Under the pieces are notes generated by a model. The model was not told the DNA's origin. It searched no databases and saw only the letters and a list, made by a program, of their open reading frames with translations. Shown one piece after another: positions 2,875 through 37,179 of a stretch of DNA of 37,179 bases. Within the stretch, counting starts at the first letter, position 1. Each line of letters begins with the position of its first letter. This DNA comes from a virus, in the IMG/VR virus record IMGVR_UViG_3300045988_036825, positions 1 to 37,179 of that record. The stretch is one strand, 5' to 3'. The position numbers and the translations under genes were made by a program.

Positions 2875-5265
2875 ATGGAAAAATACACCTTATCGCTCGC
2901 AGGTTCTTCGGCGTCTCTGAAATGGAAGGCGGTGCGCCTCACATGGGACGATTTTGTAAAACGTTTAGGTACGCCCGTTATCACTAACGAAACGGTACGC
3001 GAGTACGATAAATTAGACAAGCCTGCTAAATCTTCTTTGAAGGACGTAGGCGGATTCATGGCGGGAGAGCTTTCCGGATCGCAACGCCTTAAAAAGGCGG
3101 TCATGTCTCGCACAATGATAACGCTAGACATTGACTTCGCCGATGATCTTTTCCCGATTGATTTCGAGGACCGTTTTCACGGATACGCGGCGGTTATATA
3201 TACAACGCGTTCGGATAGACCGGGAGCGCGCCGTTACCGCCTTATCATGCCTTTCAAGGAAGAGGTTACGGACGTTGTTATGTACGAGGCGGCAGCGCGC
3301 AAAGTAGCCGAGTTGTTAGGTATTGATCTATTCGACAAAACAACGTTTCAACCGGAACGCATGATGTACTGGCAGTCCCTTTCAAAAGATCAAACCGGAC
3401 TTTTCGAAGTGTTCGAAGGAGAACCGATCAGCGCGGAGTATCTAATAGGTTTGTACGGAGACAGTGAAGAGTGGCGAGACGTGCGCAACTGGGCTTTCCA
3501 TTCGGACACAGACCGGGAGACAAGAGCGATAGTTAATAAGGAGATGGCAAAAGACCCTAGAGATAAAGAGGGTTTAGTAGGCGCGTTTTGCCGCTCATAC
3601 ACGATACAGGCAGCAATAGAAAAATATCTATCAGACGTTTACACGGAAGTAGACAACGGACGTTATACCTATGCCCTTGGATCGGGTGCGGCTGGTTTAG
3701 TTGTGTATGACGATGTACTTTGTTTTTCCCATCACTCAACCGACCCGATAGGAGACGGACACGCTTATAACGCCTATGATCTTGTACGCGTTCACAAATT
3801 CGGGCACCTTGGTAAGGAAGACAGTACTCGCGAGATGAACAAGCTAGTTTGCGCGGATAAGGAGTGCGTTAAAGATATGGTAGCCGTGGACGATGATCTA
3901 ACCGACTTCGAAGCATATGACGAAGAAGTAAAGGCAGACGCGCAGACCGCCGCCGAACTTGTTTGGGACTTGGATAAGAAGGGCGATAAAATGTGCACCG
4001 TCCGTAACTTTGTTAACGCTTTCAAGTGTGATCCACTATTAAACGATCTGTTAGCTTATGATTTGTTTCTTGATACAATAGTGTACACCCGCACGCCGTT
4101 CTTCTCGAATGACATCAAGAAGGGCGATATGCTGGACGACACAGCAGTAGCGATTATCCGTGGACGTATAGAAGATTTGCACGGTATTTATAATGACAGC
4201 AAGCTAACCGACGCGCTGGAAAAGGTTTGCAGTGAAAACGCTTTCCATCCTATCAAAAAATATCTAGAGGCACAAAGGTGGGACGGTGTGAAACGTATTG
4301 ATAATTTCTTAGCTGACTACATGGGTGCGAAGCCTAGTATATACGTTTCCGAGGCGTTCCGAAAAATGTTAGTCGCCGCGGTTGCTAGAGTGTACGAACC
4401 AGGACGTAAATTTGATACGGCGCTTGTCATGTATTCCGGGCAGGGCGCGGGAAAGTCCACGCTTATACAGTCCCTTTCAAAAGGTTGGTTTAATGATTCA
4501 TTAACCGACATATCCGGGCAAAAAGCATACGAAGCGATACAACATGCTTGGATCGTGGAGCTAGCCGAGTTATCAGCACTTCGCCGTTCGGACGTGGAAG
4601 CCACAAAGAACTTTATCAGCAAGCGGGAAGATACATATCGTAGCGCATACGCCCGCCGCGTCAAGACGCACAGGCGTCAATGTGTGTTCTTTGGGTCTAC
4701 CAATGATGATGAGTTTTTGAAGGACAAGACCGGAAACCGCCGTTTCTTTCCTATCGAGGTACGCGCCAATAAGAACACGCACAGGCTATTCGAAAAGTCA
4801 TTCGAGAAAGTGGTAGACCAGCTTTGGGCCGAGGCGATGGAGTTGTACATGTGCGGGGAAAGTCTTATCTTATCCGATGAAGCGGAAGCGATTGCAAGTG
4901 AAGGCCGCGAAGAATTTACAGAAGAAAGTCCTCTAGTAGGTATTATTGAAAACTACGTGGACAGGCTTTTCCCGGCTGACTACGAAGAGCGCACCGAACA
5001 GCAACGCGCCGACTTTCTATCGGGCGGTCTGGGCGAGATAGGCGACATGGTTAAAAACGAGTTCTGTTTAATGGAACTTTGGGTGGATGCGCTGGGACGC
5101 CGTAAAGAAGATTATACCAGCGCGAAAGGTCGCGAATTGTCCACAGCGATGCGACAAATGAAAGGTTGGTACAAAGGAAAGTTAAAAAGAACGAAATTGT
5201 ACGGCCAACAAGTAGTTTATATCCGTAAAGGAAGCGAAGAAAGCAAAAAATTATTATCTTTGTGA
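2875..5265 (+). CDS. Primase-polymerase / VirE-type (D5-like) primase-helicase
   Basis: N-terminal acidic motif ITLDIDFADD and AVIYTTRSDRPGARRYRLIMPF (prim-pol-like). Walker A SGQGAGKST and Walker B-like WIVELAEL in the C-terminal half, as in virulence-associated protein E family NTPases. Confidence 0.85.
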   Translation: MEKYTLSLAGSSASLKWKAVRLTWDDFVKRLGTPVITNETVREYDKLDKPAKSSLKDVGGFMAGELSGSQRLKKAVMSRTMITLDIDFADDLFPIDFEDRFHGYAAVIYTTRSDRPGARRYRLIMPFKEEVTDVVMYEAAARKVAELLGIDLFDKTTFQPERMMYWQSLSKDQTGLFEVFEGEPISAEYLIGLYGDSEEWRDVRNWAFHSDTDRETRAIVNKEMAKDPRDKEGLVGAFCRSYTIQAAIEKYLSDVYTEVDNGRYTYALGSGAAGLVVYDDVLCFSHHSTDPIGDGHAYNAYDLVRVHKFGHLGKEDSTREMNKLVCADKECVKDMVAVDDDLTDFEAYDEEVKADAQTAAELVWDLDKKGDKMCTVRNFVNAFKCDPLLNDLLAYDLFLDTIVYTRTPFFSNDIKKGDMLDDTAVAIIRGRIEDLHGIYNDSKLTDALEKVCSENAFHPIKKYLEAQRWDGVKRIDNFLADYMGAKPSIYVSEAFRKMLVAAVARVYEPGRKFDTALVMYSGQGAGKSTLIQSLSKGWFNDSLTDISGQKAYEAIQHAWIVELAELSALRRSDVEATKNFISKREDTYRSAYARRVKTHRRQCVFFGSTNDDEFLKDKTGNRRFFPIEVRANKNTHRLFEKSFEKVVDQLWAEAMELYMCGESLILSDEAEAIASEGREEFTEESPLVGIIENYVDRLFPADYEERTEQQRADFLSGGLGEIGDMVKNEFCLMELWVDALGRRKEDYTSAKGRELSTAMRQMKGWYKGKLKRTKLYGQQVVYIRKGSEESKKLLSL

Positions 5266-5326
5266 CACAAAACTTTCTTTTCTAATTTTTAAGGTTAATA
5301 CTTTTAGGGTGGTTTTTTTCAGTTAA

Positions 5327-5362
5327 AAAGGCTTTCGTAGTGATACGCGAGCCTTTATTTTT
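5327..5362 (+). terminator. Rho-independent terminator ending the early/replication transcription unit
   Basis: AAAGGCTTTCG / CGCGAGCCTTT stem (one internal mismatch) with 8-nt loop, followed by ATTTTT. Lies in the 206-bp gap after the primase gene. Confidence 0.5.
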
Positions 5363-5376
5363 GTTAATATCACAAA

Positions 5377-5423
5377 GTTTTTTCCGAAAACGTTTGGTAG
5401 TTCAAAATAAAGCCGTACCTTTG
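5377..5423 (+). promoter_or_regulatory. Consensus Bacteroidota promoter cassette (copy 1 of a 47-bp repeat)
   Basis: TTTG at 5393..5396, 19-nt spacer, TACCTTTG at 5416..5423. Matches 34707..34753 at 46/47 positions. Confidence 0.7.
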
Positions 5424-5471
5424 CTTTCACAATAACCAATTAAAGTATTAACCAAATAAAGTATTACAGTT

Positions 5472-7781: not shown

Positions 7782-7812
7782 TTTGGTAGTCTGATAAGCA
7801 GTCGTATCTTTG
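7782..7812 (+). promoter_or_regulatory. Bacteroidota-type promoter (TTTG-N19-TATCTTTG)
   Basis: TTTG 7782..7785, 19-nt spacer, TATCTTTG 7805..7812, in the gap after the VRR-NUC gene. Confidence 0.65.
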
Positions 7813-13779: not shown

Positions 13780-13786
13780 GAATTGA

Positions 13787-13819
13787 GGGGTTAATGTATA
13801 AAAACGTTAATCCCTTTTT
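13787..13819 (+). terminator. Rho-independent terminator ending the second transcription unit
   Basis: GGGGTTAA (13787..13794) pairs with TTAATCCC (13807..13814), including one G-U pair. 12-nt loop, then TTTTT (13815..13819). Confidence 0.6.
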
Positions 13820-13949
13820 GTGTTAAATTTGTTAACATGCTTCTGACGCACTTCGGAAAAAACTTTGTGAGAGAAAACTTTTTAGAGAAAATGTTCGAAT
13901 TTAACTGTATTTTAACTAAAAAGCGTGTTTTTGACAAAAAAGTAGCCAA

Positions 13950-14335
13950 ATACATCTTTTACATTGCCGTTTCATCTTTTACACCCAACCAGCTCCACAG
14001 GACGCAGAACGCACTTTTCAAGTTTTTGATGTAAAAGATTAAAATTTGTATCTTTTACACCTAACTTGCTTATTCATAGTACTTTATACTGTAATATAGT
14101 GTATTTGTAAAAGATGTAAAGATGATTACTATAGAGTACCTTTTAAAAAGAAGAAATATAGTTAACATAAATATACTATTGTTATTTTAAATAATTTATT
14201 TCGTCTTTTTTTTTATTTTACTCTAATAGAGAAACTATCTTTTATCTTTTACAATTGGCGATTTTCGCCCGTAATTTACTGATACGCAATTAGTTAGGGC
14301 GTAAAAGATGATATAATTCTATCTTTTACACTAAA
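13950..14335. promoter_or_regulatory. Iteron module A: eight copies of ATCTTTTACA / TGTAAAAGAT
   Basis: + orientation at 13954, 13974, 14050, 14244, 14321. - orientation at 14030, 14106, 14301 (9/10 match). Coordinates are the first base of each 10-mer. Confidence 0.8.
14030..14124. repeat. 95-bp conserved core, copy A (93/95 identical to 34360..34454)
   Basis: Aligned by eye. Only two substitutions (CACCTAAC vs CACTTAAC, TATTCATAG vs TATTTATAG). Contains the inverted pair TGTAAAAGAT-N10-ATCTTTTACA. Confidence 0.9.
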
Positions 14336-14411
14336 AACGGCTTATTTAGATAAAGTGCTGTGTTTGAATCAGTTAGCGCACATTTTACGGATTACATAGG
14401 CGTACAGGGCA

Positions 14412-14439
14412 TTTGAGACGGGCGAAATGATTACTTTTG
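14412..14439 (+). promoter_or_regulatory. Candidate late promoter with sub-optimal spacing (TTTG-N16-TACTTTTG)
   Basis: TTTG 14412..14415 and TACTTTTG 14432..14439, 23 nt upstream of the TerS ATG. The spacer is 16 nt instead of the usual 19-21. Confidence 0.35.
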
Positions 14440-14462
14440 TACGGGAATGTAAATAAAATTAT

Positions 14463-15173
14463 ATGGCTACAGAGAAGAAACAGATAACAGAAACCACGAA
14501 GCCCGTGGAGCTTCCAAAGGAGAAGCCCGTACCGGAGGAAAGGGTTAAAGCGGCGTGCGGTGGTGGAGCGATCCGGCCGACGTACGCGTCCACGCAATAC
14601 CTCTCCGATTCGTTCGAGTGCACCCGATGTTACCAGCTGGCAACGCGCCGGTTCGGCAAAACGCCCGTATGGCAGGACCCCGCCGAGCTGTGGGAGGCCT
14701 ACGCGATTTACACCGCTTGGTGCGAGGCTACGCCCGTTATAGTGTACGAGCCGATAAAATCGGGACCGGCAGCGGGAACGCTATACGAGGTACCGAAGAA
14801 GCACCTTCAGAGCGAAAGCGAGTTTACGGCGTTCCTGGGGGCTGGGGTGAAGTACCTGCACGAACGCCGCAACACTTATACGAAGAACTTCGAGGAGTTC
14901 GGTTTGTCGGTATGCGAGGAGTTCGTAGAGACGATAGACCGCATACGCGCCGAGATCGCGGCGGACATGGATCAAGGGGCGAGCGTAGGGCAATTCGACG
15001 CACAATATATTAGGGCGCTACGCGGGATCAAGATGCAAATGGATTACACGTCTAACGGCGAAGCCATCAAGGGCGGTTTGACTGTGAACGTCACAGACCC
15101 GAAAGTGTCTGCAAGGATGGGAAAGCTGAAAGACTTCAAGAAGGACCATAAAGAAGAAGGGGAGAAGAAATGA
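14463..15173 (+). CDS. terS: Terminase small subunit (gp3-like DNA-packaging protein)
   Basis: Immediately upstream of and ATGA-coupled to TerL. DPAELWEAYAIYTAWCE...FTAFLG resembles the conserved N-terminal helix region of small terminases. Confidence 0.5.
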   Translation: MATEKKQITETTKPVELPKEKPVPEERVKAACGGGAIRPTYASTQYLSDSFECTRCYQLATRRFGKTPVWQDPAELWEAYAIYTAWCEATPVIVYEPIKSGPAAGTLYEVPKKHLQSESEFTAFLGAGVKYLHERRNTYTKNFEEFGLSVCEEFVETIDRIRAEIAADMDQGASVGQFDAQYIRALRGIKMQMDYTSNGEAIKGGLTVNVTDPKVSARMGKLKDFKKDHKEEGEKK

Positions 15174-16351: not shown

Positions 16352-16510
16352 ATGAGAGTGGACGATCGGGTGCGCATTAAATACGATTACGCCGGGAACA
16401 CCGGGACAGTCACGGACATCGGGGTGCTGGGAGCGGTCGTACAGTGGGACGGCTCGAACGTCGAGGAGTGGTATTATTACGAGGAACTAGAACTGATTGA
16501 ATATGAGTAA
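16352..16510 (+). CDS. Hypothetical small protein (52 aa), not in the ORF track
   Basis: ATG 16352 lies 9 nt after the TerL stop. Translation: MRVDDRVRIKYDYAGNTGTVTDIGVLGAVVQWDGSNVEEWYYYEELELIEYE. Fills an otherwise empty 150-nt gap. Confidence 0.5.
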   Translation: MRVDDRVRIKYDYAGNTGTVTDIGVLGAVVQWDGSNVEEWYYYEELELIEYE

Positions 16511-17294
16511 AAAACCAAGTTGCAATAGCTGTGTTAAGTGGGGTACGATGGAGTGCCCTAACAGTTCGGAGTGCTATGCCTTACCCGATAAGCCGCACTA
16601 CACTGAGCGTCTGAAAGGAACTACGACGTTTCAAGGCGTGGAGGAGCTTATACTAAGCGAACAAACCAACTGGCGGGGAAAGGTTAAAAACGTCTTTCGT
16701 CGCTTGTGGTGGAAAATATGTAGGCGTTACAACGCCAAGCAATTAGAATTTATTTGTAACTTGCATCCGAATTATAAGGGCGGCCTAACTTCTGACCAAG
16801 CAGCGACACTTAACGCGGTGGCAGAGTACGCTAAGGCCGACCCTTTTATAGTTAAAAATCGAAAGCTAGTGTACCGCATACCACGTATCGAGGACGTGAC
16901 ACTGTGGCAGGTTATCGAGGCGAGAAGGAGCGAGACGGCAACGGAGAAGGTTACGAAGTGGTGCACGCCTATCGAGCACAAGCCCGCAGAGTATGCGCCG
17001 GATAACGTCTACCATTTGCTGTGCGCTACTAAGTACATCAAGGAACAGATCGAGACGGCGGACGGACTAGAGAAACGCCTGTTTCCTTTCGATGCCGGGA
17101 GCACGCCGGAAGATGATCCGATAAAGGAGGCGAAGAATGTGTTAACGCTTGTACAGGCTACGGCGGAATTGTTCAAATGCACGTTCGAGGAGGCGAAACG
17201 GATAAACTACCTGGATGCCATGCTAGCGCTGTCTAAGCGTCACGAGGAGATCGAGAAACAGAAAGCAGAGATGAAGAGACGTTATAACAAATAA
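16503..17294 (+). CDS. Hypothetical protein with N-terminal Cys cluster
   Basis: The ORF track starts at TTG 16497. ATG 16503 (MSKKPSCNSCVKWGTMECPNSSEC) is preferred. No family recognised. It occupies the slot where a portal gene normally sits. Confidence 0.6.
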   Translation: MSKKPSCNSCVKWGTMECPNSSECYALPDKPHYTERLKGTTTFQGVEELILSEQTNWRGKVKNVFRRLWWKICRRYNAKQLEFICNLHPNYKGGLTSDQAATLNAVAEYAKADPFIVKNRKLVYRIPRIEDVTLWQVIEARRSETATEKVTKWCTPIEHKPAEYAPDNVYHLLCATKYIKEQIETADGLEKRLFPFDAGSTPEDDPIKEAKNVLTLVQATAELFKCTFEEAKRINYLDAMLALSKRHEEIEKQKAEMKRRYNK

Positions 17295-30716: not shown

Positions 30717-31268
30717 ATGGAAAAAATTACAGATATAGGGCAAATAGTTTCATTGTGTCAAACAATGACTAACCTAAAATTGGATATTGCATGCGGTGCG
30801 GATCGTCTGTTTGCGCAACGTTGGTATGATGAACAGTACGCAACCGGGAAGCACACACGTTACGTAATGAAGCCGGGACTATTCATCAATTCGATCGAGG
30901 ACGGACGGGTGTACCGCGCTTTCAACACAAGCGATGAAAAAGCCGTTTACTTCATGGAATCAAACGAGAATTACAAGGACTATTTTATAGACTTGCAAGC
31001 AGAACCGGAAGCACCCGTAGAAGGTGATCCAGAACCGGAAGCACCCGTAGAAGGTGATCCAGAACCGGAAGCACCCGTAGAAGGTGATCCAGAACCGGAA
31101 GCCGTTCAAGTGATGGCAGCAGCCGAAGAGCCGGAACTATCAGAGGAAGAGATCGCAGCGGCTAAACGCAGTGAAGCGGCAAAAAAGGCAGCAGCCACAC
31201 GCGCCGCAAATAAAGCAGCAGCAGAAGAGGCAGCAGCCGCGGAGGGTCTTAAAGAGTTCGAAGAATAA
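30717..31268 (+). CDS. Hypothetical virion-module protein with a repeated EPEAPVEGDP linker and an Ala/Glu/Lys-rich tail
   Basis: ORF track entry. Contains the perfect 30-bp tandem repeat. Confidence 0.6.
   Translation: MEKITDIGQIVSLCQTMTNLKLDIACGADRLFAQRWYDEQYATGKHTRYVMKPGLFINSIEDGRVYRAFNTSDEKAVYFMESNENYKDYFIDLQAEPEAPVEGDPEPEAPVEGDPEPEAPVEGDPEPEAVQVMAAAEEPELSEEEIAAAKRSEAAKKAAATRAANKAAAEEAAAAEGLKEFEE
31000..31102 (+). repeat. Perfect 30-bp tandem repeat, about 3.4 copies
   Basis: AGAACCGGAAGCACCCGTAGAAGGTGATCC at 31001, 31031 and 31061, plus 12 nt of a fourth unit. No mismatch between copies. Confidence 0.95.
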
Positions 31269-34274: not shown

Positions 34275-34279
34275 CGCCT

Positions 34280-34665
34280 TTCATCTTTTACAAACGCATT
34301 TTCATCTTTTACACTCAAAAATTTAAAACGCTGATTCTTAACGAATTGGCGTTTTTGCATGTAAAAGATTAAAATTTGTATCTTTTACACTTAACTTGCT
34401 TATTTATAGTACTTTATACTGTAATATAGTGTATTTGTAAAAGATGTAAAGATGTTATATAGAGATAAAAACGGAAAAGTAATATAATCTATAAAATATG
34501 TAAATATATGAATTAATATGTGAATGAGTTTATGGAAATATTTTATTTTAAACTTTATAGAAAACGTCTTTCCATCTTTTACATTTTCCCGTTTTTGCCA
34601 CCTAACTATATGATATGCAACACGATAACCCGTAAAAGATGCGTTATTTCATCTTTTATACTGTT
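34280..34665. promoter_or_regulatory. Iteron module B: eight copies of ATCTTTTACA / TGTAAAAGAT
   Basis: + orientation at 34283, 34304, 34380, 34574, 34651 (9/10 match). - orientation at 34360, 34436, 34632 (9/10 match). Each site is 20,329-20,331 bp from its counterpart in module A. Confidence 0.8.
34360..34454. repeat. 95-bp conserved core, copy B
   Basis: 93/95 identical to 14030..14124. Confidence 0.9.
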
Positions 34666-34706
34666 ATCAAACCTCCAAAACAGTTAATCAGAGTTAAATT
34701 ACTAAG

Positions 34707-34753
34707 GTTTTTTGCGAAAACGTTTGGTAGTTCAAAATAAAGCCGTACCTTTG
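34707..34753 (+). promoter_or_regulatory. Consensus Bacteroidota promoter cassette (copy 2), probable early promoter
   Basis: TTTG 34723..34726, 19-nt spacer, TACCTTTG 34746..34753. Matches 5377..5423 at 46/47 positions. Confidence 0.7.
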
Positions 34754-34966
34754 TCACATCGAAAGAGAAATGAGAGCGCCGCCAATCGTAACCAAAGGGC
34801 GCGAGACGGGAAACACGGATGGTATCCCAGTTCATTTGAAAAGAAGGTGCGGTTTCCGCTTAATTGAAGCTATAAAGCCCGAATCTCTAACGATAAATAA
34901 CTGAAAAGCCGTAATAAACTTATTATCCTATTCCTAGACGGAGAACCGGATTAAATATTACTAGAT

Positions 34967-35302
34967 ATGGCAGAGATAAACATTTATAGATTAGAAGCGT
35001 TCTTTTACATGGTTATAACGGAGAGGATCAAGGCGTGCGAAACGATAGGAGAGGTCACGAATATATACGGCTATCCGGGTATTTCGGGAATGGTCTACAA
35101 AGATTTGCTACGAGAAGAAGAAGCCGGAAAAAAATTCAAATATAAAATTCGGGGCTTTATAATTCCACATGCCAAACGGTATGAGAGCATTTTCGAACAA
35201 GCCAGGAAAGCCGCATTTTCCGATCACGTTAAAACCTTTAGAGGATCTACTGGACTTAGTTTTAAATTCAATAAAAAGATGCAATGGAAAAAGTCGAGTT
35301 AA
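34967..35302 (+). CDS. Hypothetical early protein (111 aa)
   Basis: First ORF downstream of the early promoter. No motif recognised. Confidence 0.55.
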   Translation: MAEINIYRLEAFFYMVITERIKACETIGEVTNIYGYPGISGMVYKDLLREEEAGKKFKYKIRGFIIPHAKRYESIFEQARKAAFSDHVKTFRGSTGLSFKFNKKMQWKKSS

Positions 35303-35996: not shown

Positions 35997-37159
35997 TGGG
36001 ACACGCAGAAAGAGATCACGCGATTTTATCGCCAAGTAGCGCGAAACGATGGATTAATTGTACGCCATCGGCGCTACTTGCAGAAGAAGCGGGCAGCAGG
36101 TCAAGCGTTTACGCAGAAGAGGGTACACTAGCCCACGAAATAGCCGAATACGCTTTGACTAAATATCTGGAAGGCGAATACGATCCGATAATTGACGATG
36201 CATTGCCGTTGAAAAACGAACATCTTGAAAACCCGCTCTTTGGCGTAGACATGGCGGATTATATACGGAGCTATTGCGAGTATGTTATCGGAGAAGGCTA
36301 CGAGATGCAAAAACAGGACGGCGGGTGCCGGACGTTCCTAGAGCGTCAGGTAGACATTACAGACTTCGCGCCGGATTCATTCGGATCGGTAGACGTAACA
36401 CTTGTATCTGACAAGACGATACACATTATAGATTTGAAGTACGGAACGGGTGTCCGGGTGTCGGCTGACATGAACGAGCAAATGTTAATGTACGCTCTTG
36501 GAACCTTGAAAAGCCTGAAAACAGAACATATTGAAAAAATACGTATGACTATCGCACAAGTCAGATTAGACCATTACGACACGTTCGAGATGGATAAAGA
36601 GGATTTGTTAGCGTGGGCGGATAAGGTGCTAAGGCCCGCCGCAAAGATGGCGATACAGGGCATAGGAAAACAGGTTATCGGAAGTTGGTGCGGTTTTTGC
36701 CCGGTCAAAGCCCAATGCAGGGCGCAACGCGATGCAATACTCGCAGATTTCGAAGAAAAGCCCGAACCCTTGTTATTATCCGACGAGGAGATAGTAGACC
36801 TAATCGGCAAGATAGACACTTACAAAAGTTGGATCGAATCAGTTAACAAGTACGTCTATGATAGAGCGATACGGGGGCACAAATGGCCGGGATATAAGCT
36901 CGTGGCGGGTAGATCCAGCCGAGTTATCAAGGACGAGGCAAAGATACGCCAAGCGCTTCTAAACGAGTTCCTCGAGGACGAAGTTTTAAACATCAAGCTA
37001 AAAGGTATCGGAGACCTCGAAAAGTTGGTAGGCAAAAAGGTATTTAGCGCTAGATTTGGAGACGCAATCGAATCGAGACCCGGCGCACCAAAGCTAGTAC
37101 CGGAATCCGCTAAGGGCGTGGAATACAGCCCGCTTTGCGACTTCGACATAGAAGGATAA
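35996..37159 (+). CDS. Cas4-like PD-(D/E)xK exonuclease, DUF2800 family
   Basis: N-terminus HAILSPSSAKRWINCTPS. Core SVDVTLV...IHIIDLKYGTG (D...D-x-K). C-terminal Cys cluster WCGFCPVKAQC which, with the N-terminal Cys, is typical of the Cas4 4Fe-4S site. Confidence 0.85.
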   Translation: MGHAERDHAILSPSSAKRWINCTPSALLAEEAGSRSSVYAEEGTLAHEIAEYALTKYLEGEYDPIIDDALPLKNEHLENPLFGVDMADYIRSYCEYVIGEGYEMQKQDGGCRTFLERQVDITDFAPDSFGSVDVTLVSDKTIHIIDLKYGTGVRVSADMNEQMLMYALGTLKSLKTEHIEKIRMTIAQVRLDHYDTFEMDKEDLLAWADKVLRPAAKMAIQGIGKQVIGSWCGFCPVKAQCRAQRDAILADFEEKPEPLLLSDEEIVDLIGKIDTYKSWIESVNKYVYDRAIRGHKWPGYKLVAGRSSRVIKDEAKIRQALLNEFLEDEVLNIKLKGIGDLEKLVGKKVFSARFGDAIESRPGAPKLVPESAKGVEYSPLCDFDIEG

Positions 37160-37179
37160 CAGAAGTTAAAAAAAAAAAC
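37081..37179. repeat. Terminal direct repeat copy 2 (identical to 1..99)
   Basis: See copy 1. Confidence 0.95.

Follow-up and report, generated by a model that had tools for sequence, protein, structure and literature searches.

Why would a phage genome carry the same array of short sites twice, in two separate intergenic gaps? We addressed this question in a window of 37,179 nt (the whole stretch of DNA that was analysed), which is a circular assembly of 37,080 bp, with bases 1-99 identical to bases 37081-37179. The phage is one of several lytic siphoviruses that infect gut Bacteroides and were isolated from sewage, and the family 'Bacteroiduroviridae' has been proposed for them. All long open reading frames (ORFs) of the window lie on the + strand. 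The early/replication arc runs from about 34.9 kb through the junction to 13.8 kb, and its products include an exonuclease, a Gp2.5-type SSB, a family-A DNA polymerase, a 796-aa primase-helicase, a second helicase, and a methyltransferase; PHROG annotation of this arc names an SF3 primase-helicase and an SF2-like helicase. The phage also encodes a VRR-NUC endonuclease, which is part of a recombination set with the exonuclease and the Gp2.5-type annealing SSB. The late arc (14.46-34.27 kb) encodes TerS, TerL, tail, capsid, portal, and lysis functions. Two long intergenic stretches, 13780-14462 and 34275-34966, hold the arrays, here called modules A and B. As the preliminary description of this DNA had proposed from the sequence, module A is located between the end of the replication arc and TerS/TerL, and module B, which precedes the early genes, begins 9 bp past the end of the last late ORF. 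The modules and the transcription signals next to them are as follows.

13785..13816, + strand: strong intrinsic terminator at the end of the early/replication arc, shortly before module A
13954..14330, + strand: module A (candidate origin copy A), an AT-rich spacer flanked by a total of eight iteron positions, with the replication-arc terminator on one side and terS on the other
34283..34660, + strand: module B (candidate origin copy B), which repeats the eight positions in matching orientation and spacing, with the last late ORF before it and the early promoter after it
34723..34753, + strand: early promoter of the Bacteroidetes type (TTTG-N19-TAccTTTG), 63 bp downstream of module B, given as context and lying outside the candidate origin

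The ORFs upstream of module A (179 aa) and module B (192 aa, DUF6549) were compared as possible paralogs and are unrelated, so the duplication is limited to the intergenic element. Cumulative GC/AT skew was also considered as an origin marker, but it rises monotonically because the genes are all co-oriented, and it is thus uninformative on origins.

The repeated site is ATCTTTTACA. Allowing at most one mismatch, it occurs 17 times in the window against 3.1 expected (sd 1.7; largest shuffle 8), and 16 of the 17 occurrences fall inside modules A and B. The sites start at 13954+, 13974+, 14030-, 14050+, 14106-, 14244+, 14300-, and 14321+ in module A and at 34283+, 34304+, 34360-, 34380+, 34436-, 34574+, 34631-, and 34651+ in module B. 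Counterpart sites have identical orientations at offsets of 20,329-20,331 bp, and the start-to-start spacings (20/56/20/56/138/56/21 in A, 21/56/20/56/138/57/20 in B) match within +/-1 bp. Each module consists, in order, of two direct sites 20 bp apart, an inverted pair, a core, a tandem site, an AT-rich spacer, an oppositely oriented tandem site, and two further sites. Five site positions thus precede the spacer and three follow it. The individual features are listed below, first for module A and then for module B.

13954..13963, + strand: iteron A1, ATCTTTTACA
13974..13983, + strand: iteron A2, ATCTTTTACA, 20 bp after A1
14030..14059, both strands: inverted pair A3(-)/A4(+), TGTAAAAGAT-TAAAATTTGT-ATCTTTTACA, with a 10-bp spacer; block invariant over 51 modules
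14060..14105, + strand: conserved core of 46 bp, bounded by A4 and A5, with 96% identity to the B copy
14106..14123, - strand: tandem iteron A5, TGTAAAAGAT overlapping TGTAAAGAT, at the left border of the AT-rich spacer
14124..14236, no strand: AT-rich spacer A, about 83% AT, predicted unwinding element, with the genome's least stable 100-bp window (start 14151)
14237..14253, + strand: tandem iteron A6, ATCTTTTAT overlapping ATCTTTTACA, at the right spacer border and inverted relative to A5
14300..14330, both strands: iterons A7(-) CGTAAAAGAT and A8(+) ATCTTTTACA, with an 11-bp spacer

34283..34292, + strand: iteron B1
34304..34313, + strand: iteron B2
34360..34389, both strands: inverted pair B3(-)/B4(+), with the same invariant spacer as A3/A4
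34390..34435, + strand: conserved core, copy B
34436..34453, - strand: tandem iteron B5
34454..34565, no strand: AT-rich spacer B, about 82% AT, predicted unwinding element, with the second least stable 100-bp window (start 34459)
34566..34583, + strand: tandem iteron B6, GTCTTTCCA overlapping ATCTTTTACA
34631..34660, both strands: iterons B7(-) CGTAAAAGAT and B8(+) ATCTTTTATA

Identity between the two modules is distributed very unevenly. The sites are 84% identical, the 10 bp that separate the inverted pair 100%, and the 46-bp core 96%, whereas the AT-rich spacer reaches 42% (where chance gives 36%) and the remaining sequence 35%. These results bear out most of what the preliminary description had reported: all eight sites are indeed rebuilt in the same orientation at the offsets that it gave, with the single adjustment that the site placed at 34632 moves to 34631 in the 10-mer register, and outside the sites and core the sequence has diverged to chance level (35-42% identity). 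Its estimate of a 95-bp core was too short, as the near-identical block measures 113-116 bp at 92-96% identity. The AT-rich spacers are 112-113 bp long and about 82-83% AT, and the two least stable 100-bp windows of the genome are these two spacers (85% and 84% AT); the next six least stable windows are 73-78% AT.

Promoters were searched with the Bacteroidetes consensus, a sigma-70-type scan not being meaningful for a Bacteroides host. Three canonical promoters were detected in the window, at 5393, 7782, and 34723, all in the early arc, and none in the late operon or the surroundings of module A. The promoter earlier described after module B as a perfect consensus is present, but it is of the Bacteroidetes type (TTTG-N19-TAnnTTTG, 34723-34753) and not of the sigma-70 type. 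It lies in a 61-bp block duplicated at 5363-5423 and 34693-34753 with 89-92% identity, one copy standing before the genes that follow the primase-helicase and the other before the early genes. A further promoter of this type is found at 7782-7812. Just after the early promoter, an early-leader stretch of about 140 bp (34762-34900) is found in the window and in the relatives L001, L002, and L005, and is absent from L004, L006, and L007. This stretch corresponds to a small CDS annotation in phage BKO1-1 and has no Rfam match. A search of the whole window against Rfam matched no family, so neither the modules nor the early leader are known RNAs.

Two further repeats were noted in the window. A perfect 30-bp tandem repeat (3.4 copies, 31000-31102) is located inside the ORF at 30717-31268 and encodes a PEAPVEGDPE-like repeated peptide in a structural-arc protein. 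A second repeated motif, resembling AAAACTTTGTGAGAGAAAAC, occurs upstream of module A (window 13855-13895; reverse-complemented 16390-16540 in relative L008) and is found in many copies in B. caccae phages, one of them within their early promoter block. This motif is a candidate operator for a different regulator, which may be the HTH_17 protein.

To place the modules in a wider context, we examined eight complete related genomes, 48 metagenomic viral loci, and three more distant family members. The metagenomic loci were centred on the primase-helicase gene, and their 10-kb flanks can reach both modules. Every genome or locus containing the flanking genes has a gap of 550-800 bp at both places, and modules were found wherever the flanks were present (36 A modules and 38 B modules). 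Every complete genome has either an internal match between the two gaps or a shared motif enrichment. The comparison with related phages that the preliminary description had suggested thus returned both modules throughout, and no relative with only one module was found among the genomes and loci examined. Within the B. ovatus group, site positions are conserved across 51 aligned modules, the best-kept bases being ATC-n-TT-n-ACA, and the inverted pair with its 10-bp spacer is an invariant block. The earlier suggestion that selection acts on site identity and geometry, made from two modules, can now be extended to these 51. Outside this group the iteron itself changes while the duplication is retained, as listed here.

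B. ovatus group: iteron ATCTTT(T/G)ACA
B. caccae group: iteron ATCTATGACA / GTGACA, or ATTACA; twin modules (357 bp, 88%)
B. uniformis phage: iteron ATCTGTGCA; twin modules (230 bp, 83%)
Phocaeicola vulgatus phage: iteron GTGTTCCA; twin modules (201 bp, 78%)
B. thetaiotaomicron phage: iteron ATCTATCT; motif enriched in both gaps

The two copies also appear to have exchanged sequence. Core alleles differ between A and B in most relatives, while the window has the same allele in both copies. A recent conversion tract is therefore the best reading of the near-identity over 113 bp in the window, in preference to an additional conserved element. At 14250-14330, the right arm of module A in the window resembles the module B type, unlike module A of most relatives, and this B-like right arm is common only to the window and L010. 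The pattern points to a second, older exchange between the two copies. Neighboring genes show allelic variation of their own. Two TerS (14463-15173) alleles, with no more than about 65% identity to each other, occur in phages that are otherwise about 91% identical; L010-L012 have the same allele as the window. A similar division (about 75% versus 92-95% identity) is seen in the first early ORF (34967-35302).

If one protein reads both modules, the primase-helicase of the replication arc is our candidate. Its relevant features are these.

2875..5265, + strand: primase-helicase, 796 aa, VapE-like SF3 helicase, homologue of SaPI Rep1/PriRep; proposed initiator
5008..5262, + strand: C-terminal domain, residues 712-796, predicted winged helix
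5206..5208, + strand: codon 778 (Gln in the window), the variable x of a Y-G-x-Q wing-tip motif

The protein contains a VapE-like domain (Pfam, E = 3.8e-76), and residues 386-711 match SaPI1 Rep1 (PDB 7PDS) with E = 7.6e-74 by phmmer. A first structure model, made from 7 sequences, had a pLDDT of 57, which was too low for use. An AlphaFold model of residues 386-796 from a 49-sequence alignment reached a pLDDT of 88 and aligned to the 7PDS chains over 417-432 columns (Foldseek; TM 0.74-0.77, E about 1e-34), a length which means that the C-terminal domain is included in the match. The model gives this domain the strand-helix-helix-helix-strand-strand topology of a winged helix, and places residue 778 just after the turn of the wing hairpin, at the predicted wing tip. 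The other three residues of the Y-G-x-Q motif are invariant or nearly so in 49 diverse VapE proteins. The N-terminal domain is a putative primase, assigned from a PHROG match; searches with that domain returned no PDB or NCBIfam relative. The gene is about 8 kb from either module, and the gap that follows it (5266-5471) contains no iterons.

Natural variation in the sites provided a means of associating them with a protein. The related genomes split into those with TTTACA-type iterons and those with TTGACA-type iterons, modules A and B agreeing in 12 of 13 genomes, and sites of A and B from the same genome are more alike than those of shuffled partners (identity 0.833 versus 0.816, P = 0.003). 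An association scan was carried out over 2,459 variable columns in all 43 ORFs of at least 50 aa that are present in the window. The top column was residue 778 of the primase-helicase, with a Fisher P of 3.6e-7 in 32 related genomes, a value that overstates independence as the genomes tested are kin. The next-best protein column was 1000-fold weaker (P = 3.3e-4), and none of 500 label permutations reached the value for residue 778. Arginine is found at this position in all nine G-type genomes and in one of the 23 T-type genomes, and Ala, Gln, Val, or Ser is found where the sites read TTTACA. Counted by sites, the Arg genomes have 38 TTGACA and 16 TTTACA, compared to 2 and 111 in the non-Arg genomes; the single exception, L024, combines Arg with T-type sites in module B. 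Arg778 sits on at least two different local backgrounds, and its signal is not shared by any linked column. A balanced-accuracy statistic returned the same top column without reaching significance (family-wise 0.14), because it overfits: with few genomes, small hypervariable columns reach 1.0 by chance. It was replaced by the Fisher test with permutation.

The same relationship is seen in a clade of about 68% identity, where an Ala wing goes with ATTACA, an Arg wing with ATGACA/TTGACA, and a Pro wing with mixed sites. Genes adjoining the modules (the upstream ORFs, TerS, and the first early ORF) and the HTH_17 protein associate far less with site type; the best column of the HTH_17 protein had a balanced accuracy of 0.69, and none of its columns was among the top Fisher columns. 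Two phages of the same host strain, B. ovatus DA687, differ in the same way: BK687P6 has Ser with T-type sites and BK687P2 has Arg with G-type sites. The factor that recognises the sites is therefore phage-encoded, and binding sites for a host factor, which we had also considered, are ruled out by this pair. Residue 778 looks like a specificity determinant, being variable within a conserved scaffold that is predicted to face the DNA and tracking one base pair. Taken with the modelled fold, the covariation indicates that the iterons are most likely recognised by the phage's own primase-helicase.

The preliminary description knew of no system with this architecture, but close precedents exist in the SaPI origins, SPP1 oriL/oriR, and P4 ori/crr. 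SaPI Reps are self-loading SF3 helicases in which a C-terminal winged helix recognises the iterons; the SaPI ori has an AT-rich region at its centre that divides its 6-12 iterons, leaving no fewer than two per side in opposite directions, and in SaPI5 the primase and Rep are fused (PMC9371898). The phage protein is likewise a VapE-like SF3 helicase homologous to Rep (SaPI1 Rep1, PDB 7PDS; SaPI5 PriRep5, PDB 7OLA), and like SaPI5 it appears as a primase-helicase fusion. The predicted fold and the covariation of residue 778 suggest that here too a C-terminal winged helix sets iteron specificity. The modules resemble a SaPI ori in having 5 + 3 positions, two of them tandem, around an AT-rich spacer with opposite border orientation. 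The differences are that SaPI has a single ori immediately downstream of rep, whereas the phage has two copies about 8 kb from the gene; that SaPI iterons are 5-6 bp long, compared to 9-10 bp in pairs here; and that SaPIs are satellite islands, while the present carrier is a lytic siphovirus of Bacteroides that encodes a polymerase of its own.

The duplication has its nearest counterpart in SPP1, in which two loci with the same repeats and an AT-rich element are both bound by one initiator, gp38, and in which a fork colliding with gp38 bound at oriR has been proposed to trigger the change from theta to concatemer synthesis (PMC6316719). SPP1 is also a lytic siphovirus transcribed from one strand. 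As in the window, its repeats and AT-rich unwinding element recur at two loci; in SPP1 these are direct repeats, and the loci are about 13 kb apart on the circle, with one in the late region. Unlike the present phage, SPP1 has gp38 as initiator, gp39 as a separate loader, and gp40 as a helicase of the DnaB type, and it uses the host polymerase. Its oriL is inside gene 38, and its origins are not site-for-site copies at operon boundaries as they are here. In satellite phage P4, the alpha protein combines primase, SF3 helicase, and a C-terminal winged-helix origin-binding domain in one polypeptide, and the same iteron occurs at two loci about 4.5 kb apart, ori and crr, both of which are needed in cis. 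P4 crr is a repeat pair that helps ori and not a complete second origin with its own unwinding element. The phage protein shares the domain order of alpha, and the phage shares with P4 the use of one iteron at two separate loci, but its C-terminal domain has no detectable sequence relation to that of alpha and its second copy has its own predicted unwinding element. More generally, lambda and theta-plasmid iteron origins also have repeated initiator sites adjoining an AT-rich unwinding element, though their initiators are not helicases and need a separate loader, and each replicon has one origin.

We consider it probable that both modules serve as replication origins, of the kind used by SaPI Rep and P4 alpha. 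Twin replication origins had been one of three explanations offered in the preliminary description, and the one now supported by the SaPI-type anatomy, the least stable spacers, and the covariation of wing-tip residue and site. The analysis directly shows the anatomy of the modules and how it is conserved, the protein's homology, and the covariation of residue with base; we infer that the primase-helicase binds, melts, and fires at the modules. The iterons, of 9-10 bp, stand in pairs two helical turns apart, and the tandem iterons bordering the predicted unwinding element face away from each other. In the mechanism that we propose, the primase-SF3 helicase would read the iterons via its C-terminal winged helix, assemble on both sides of the AT-rich spacer, melt the spacer, load itself, and prime. 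Elongation would be by a T7-like replisome from the same arc, comprising the family-A polymerase, the Gp2.5-type SSB, and the exonuclease. Two complete copies of such an origin would stand at the heads of two co-directional transcription arcs, and they may stay alike because both must fit one protein, with occasional mutual conversion. As to why there are two, both copies may fire, one may act like SPP1 oriR, or their positions at the arc heads may matter for transcription. The origin complex may also have a regulatory role secondary to replication. Coupling of late transcription to replication is possible, because a terminator precedes module A and the late operon is without a canonical promoter.

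Several other readings of the modules were weighed against twin origins. The strongest of them, though in our view still unlikely, is that one module is a true origin and the other a look-alike that does not fire, the same protein binding both and the second serving as a fork barrier or switch, or as a cis enhancer of the first in the manner of P4 crr. SPP1 offers a precedent, with two like loci and one initiator, where only oriL has been shown to fire in vitro (PMC6316719), and the recombination set needed for restart (exonuclease, Gp2.5-type annealing SSB, and VRR-NUC endonuclease) is encoded by the phage. However, a mere barrier would require the binding sites alone, and both copies keep the full anatomy, including the unwinding element and the spacing, in all lineages examined. 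An improbable elaboration of the origin reading is a dual-purpose element, in which the origin complex would also gate both transcription arcs as a replication-coupled early-to-late switch from two origins: the early promoter, 63 bp past copy B, would be disturbed by loading there, and the late operon would be opened when the helicase loads at copy A or a fork passes through it. As a further variant, recombination between the direct copies A and B may split the genome into circles of 20.3 and 16.75 kb with one origin each.

The other two explanations that had been put forward for the modules fared less well. A two-locus temporal switch, by which a phage regulator without a replication role shuts the early operon and opens the late one, would suit the placement of the modules at the heads of the two arcs, with the early promoter 63 bp past module B and a late operon that follows a terminator without a canonical Bacteroidetes promoter of its own. 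We nevertheless regard it as quite improbable. An operator array should be found at a promoter and follow the DNA-binding domain of its regulator; here, the last site ends 63 bp before the -33 box, so that the sites do not overlap the early promoter, and neither HTH_17 nor the other early proteins covary with site type. The protein that does covary is a replicative helicase homologue, and the genome's least stable DNA in the middle of the array would be of no use to a regulator. A pure switch is thus neither needed nor supported by any of these proteins. It is very improbable that the modules are pac or cos-like sites at which TerS oligomers bind the repeats and packaging starts at both. The location of module A directly upstream of terS, a common place for pac, speaks for this reading, as does a resemblance to the pac of SPP1, in which repeats flank the cleavage region on both sides. 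Two public records of relatives, L002 (PQ571266.1) and L003 (OP172651.1), also start within module A. The overlaps at the record ends measure 141, 55, and 99 bp, which are assembler k-mer sizes, and these breaks probably stem from the internal repeat and do not represent true genome ends. Module B, moreover, is about 17 kb (by the short arc) to 20 kb from terS. The site specificity does not follow the DNA-binding domain of TerS: the best TerS column (P = 0.005) is not significant among 2,459 columns, the same iterons accompany both alleles of about 65% identity, and the right-arm type of module A does not go with the TerS allele.

The origin type proposed here is a known one, and what is chiefly new is its duplication as two complete site-for-site copies, kept across the family members examined. 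The paper defining the 'Bacteroiduroviridae' does not mention these repeats, and our literature search found no description of such origins in Bacteroides phages. Few lytic phages of human gut Bacteroides are isolated more often than these siphoviruses, and the analysis provides the whole family with two mapped candidate origins and a named candidate initiator. It also provides a natural series of matched initiator and iteron variants, in which a wing-tip Arg versus Ala/Gln/Val/Ser tracks G versus T, and which makes the recognition code of SaPI/VapE-type self-loading helicases directly testable. The modules may serve as origin cassettes in Bacteroides genetic tools. We propose that the family represents a second, independent case beside SPP1 of a lytic phage keeping two origins, and such a case could show what a second origin is for, whether faster replication, a switch to concatemers, or the coupling of late transcription to replication.
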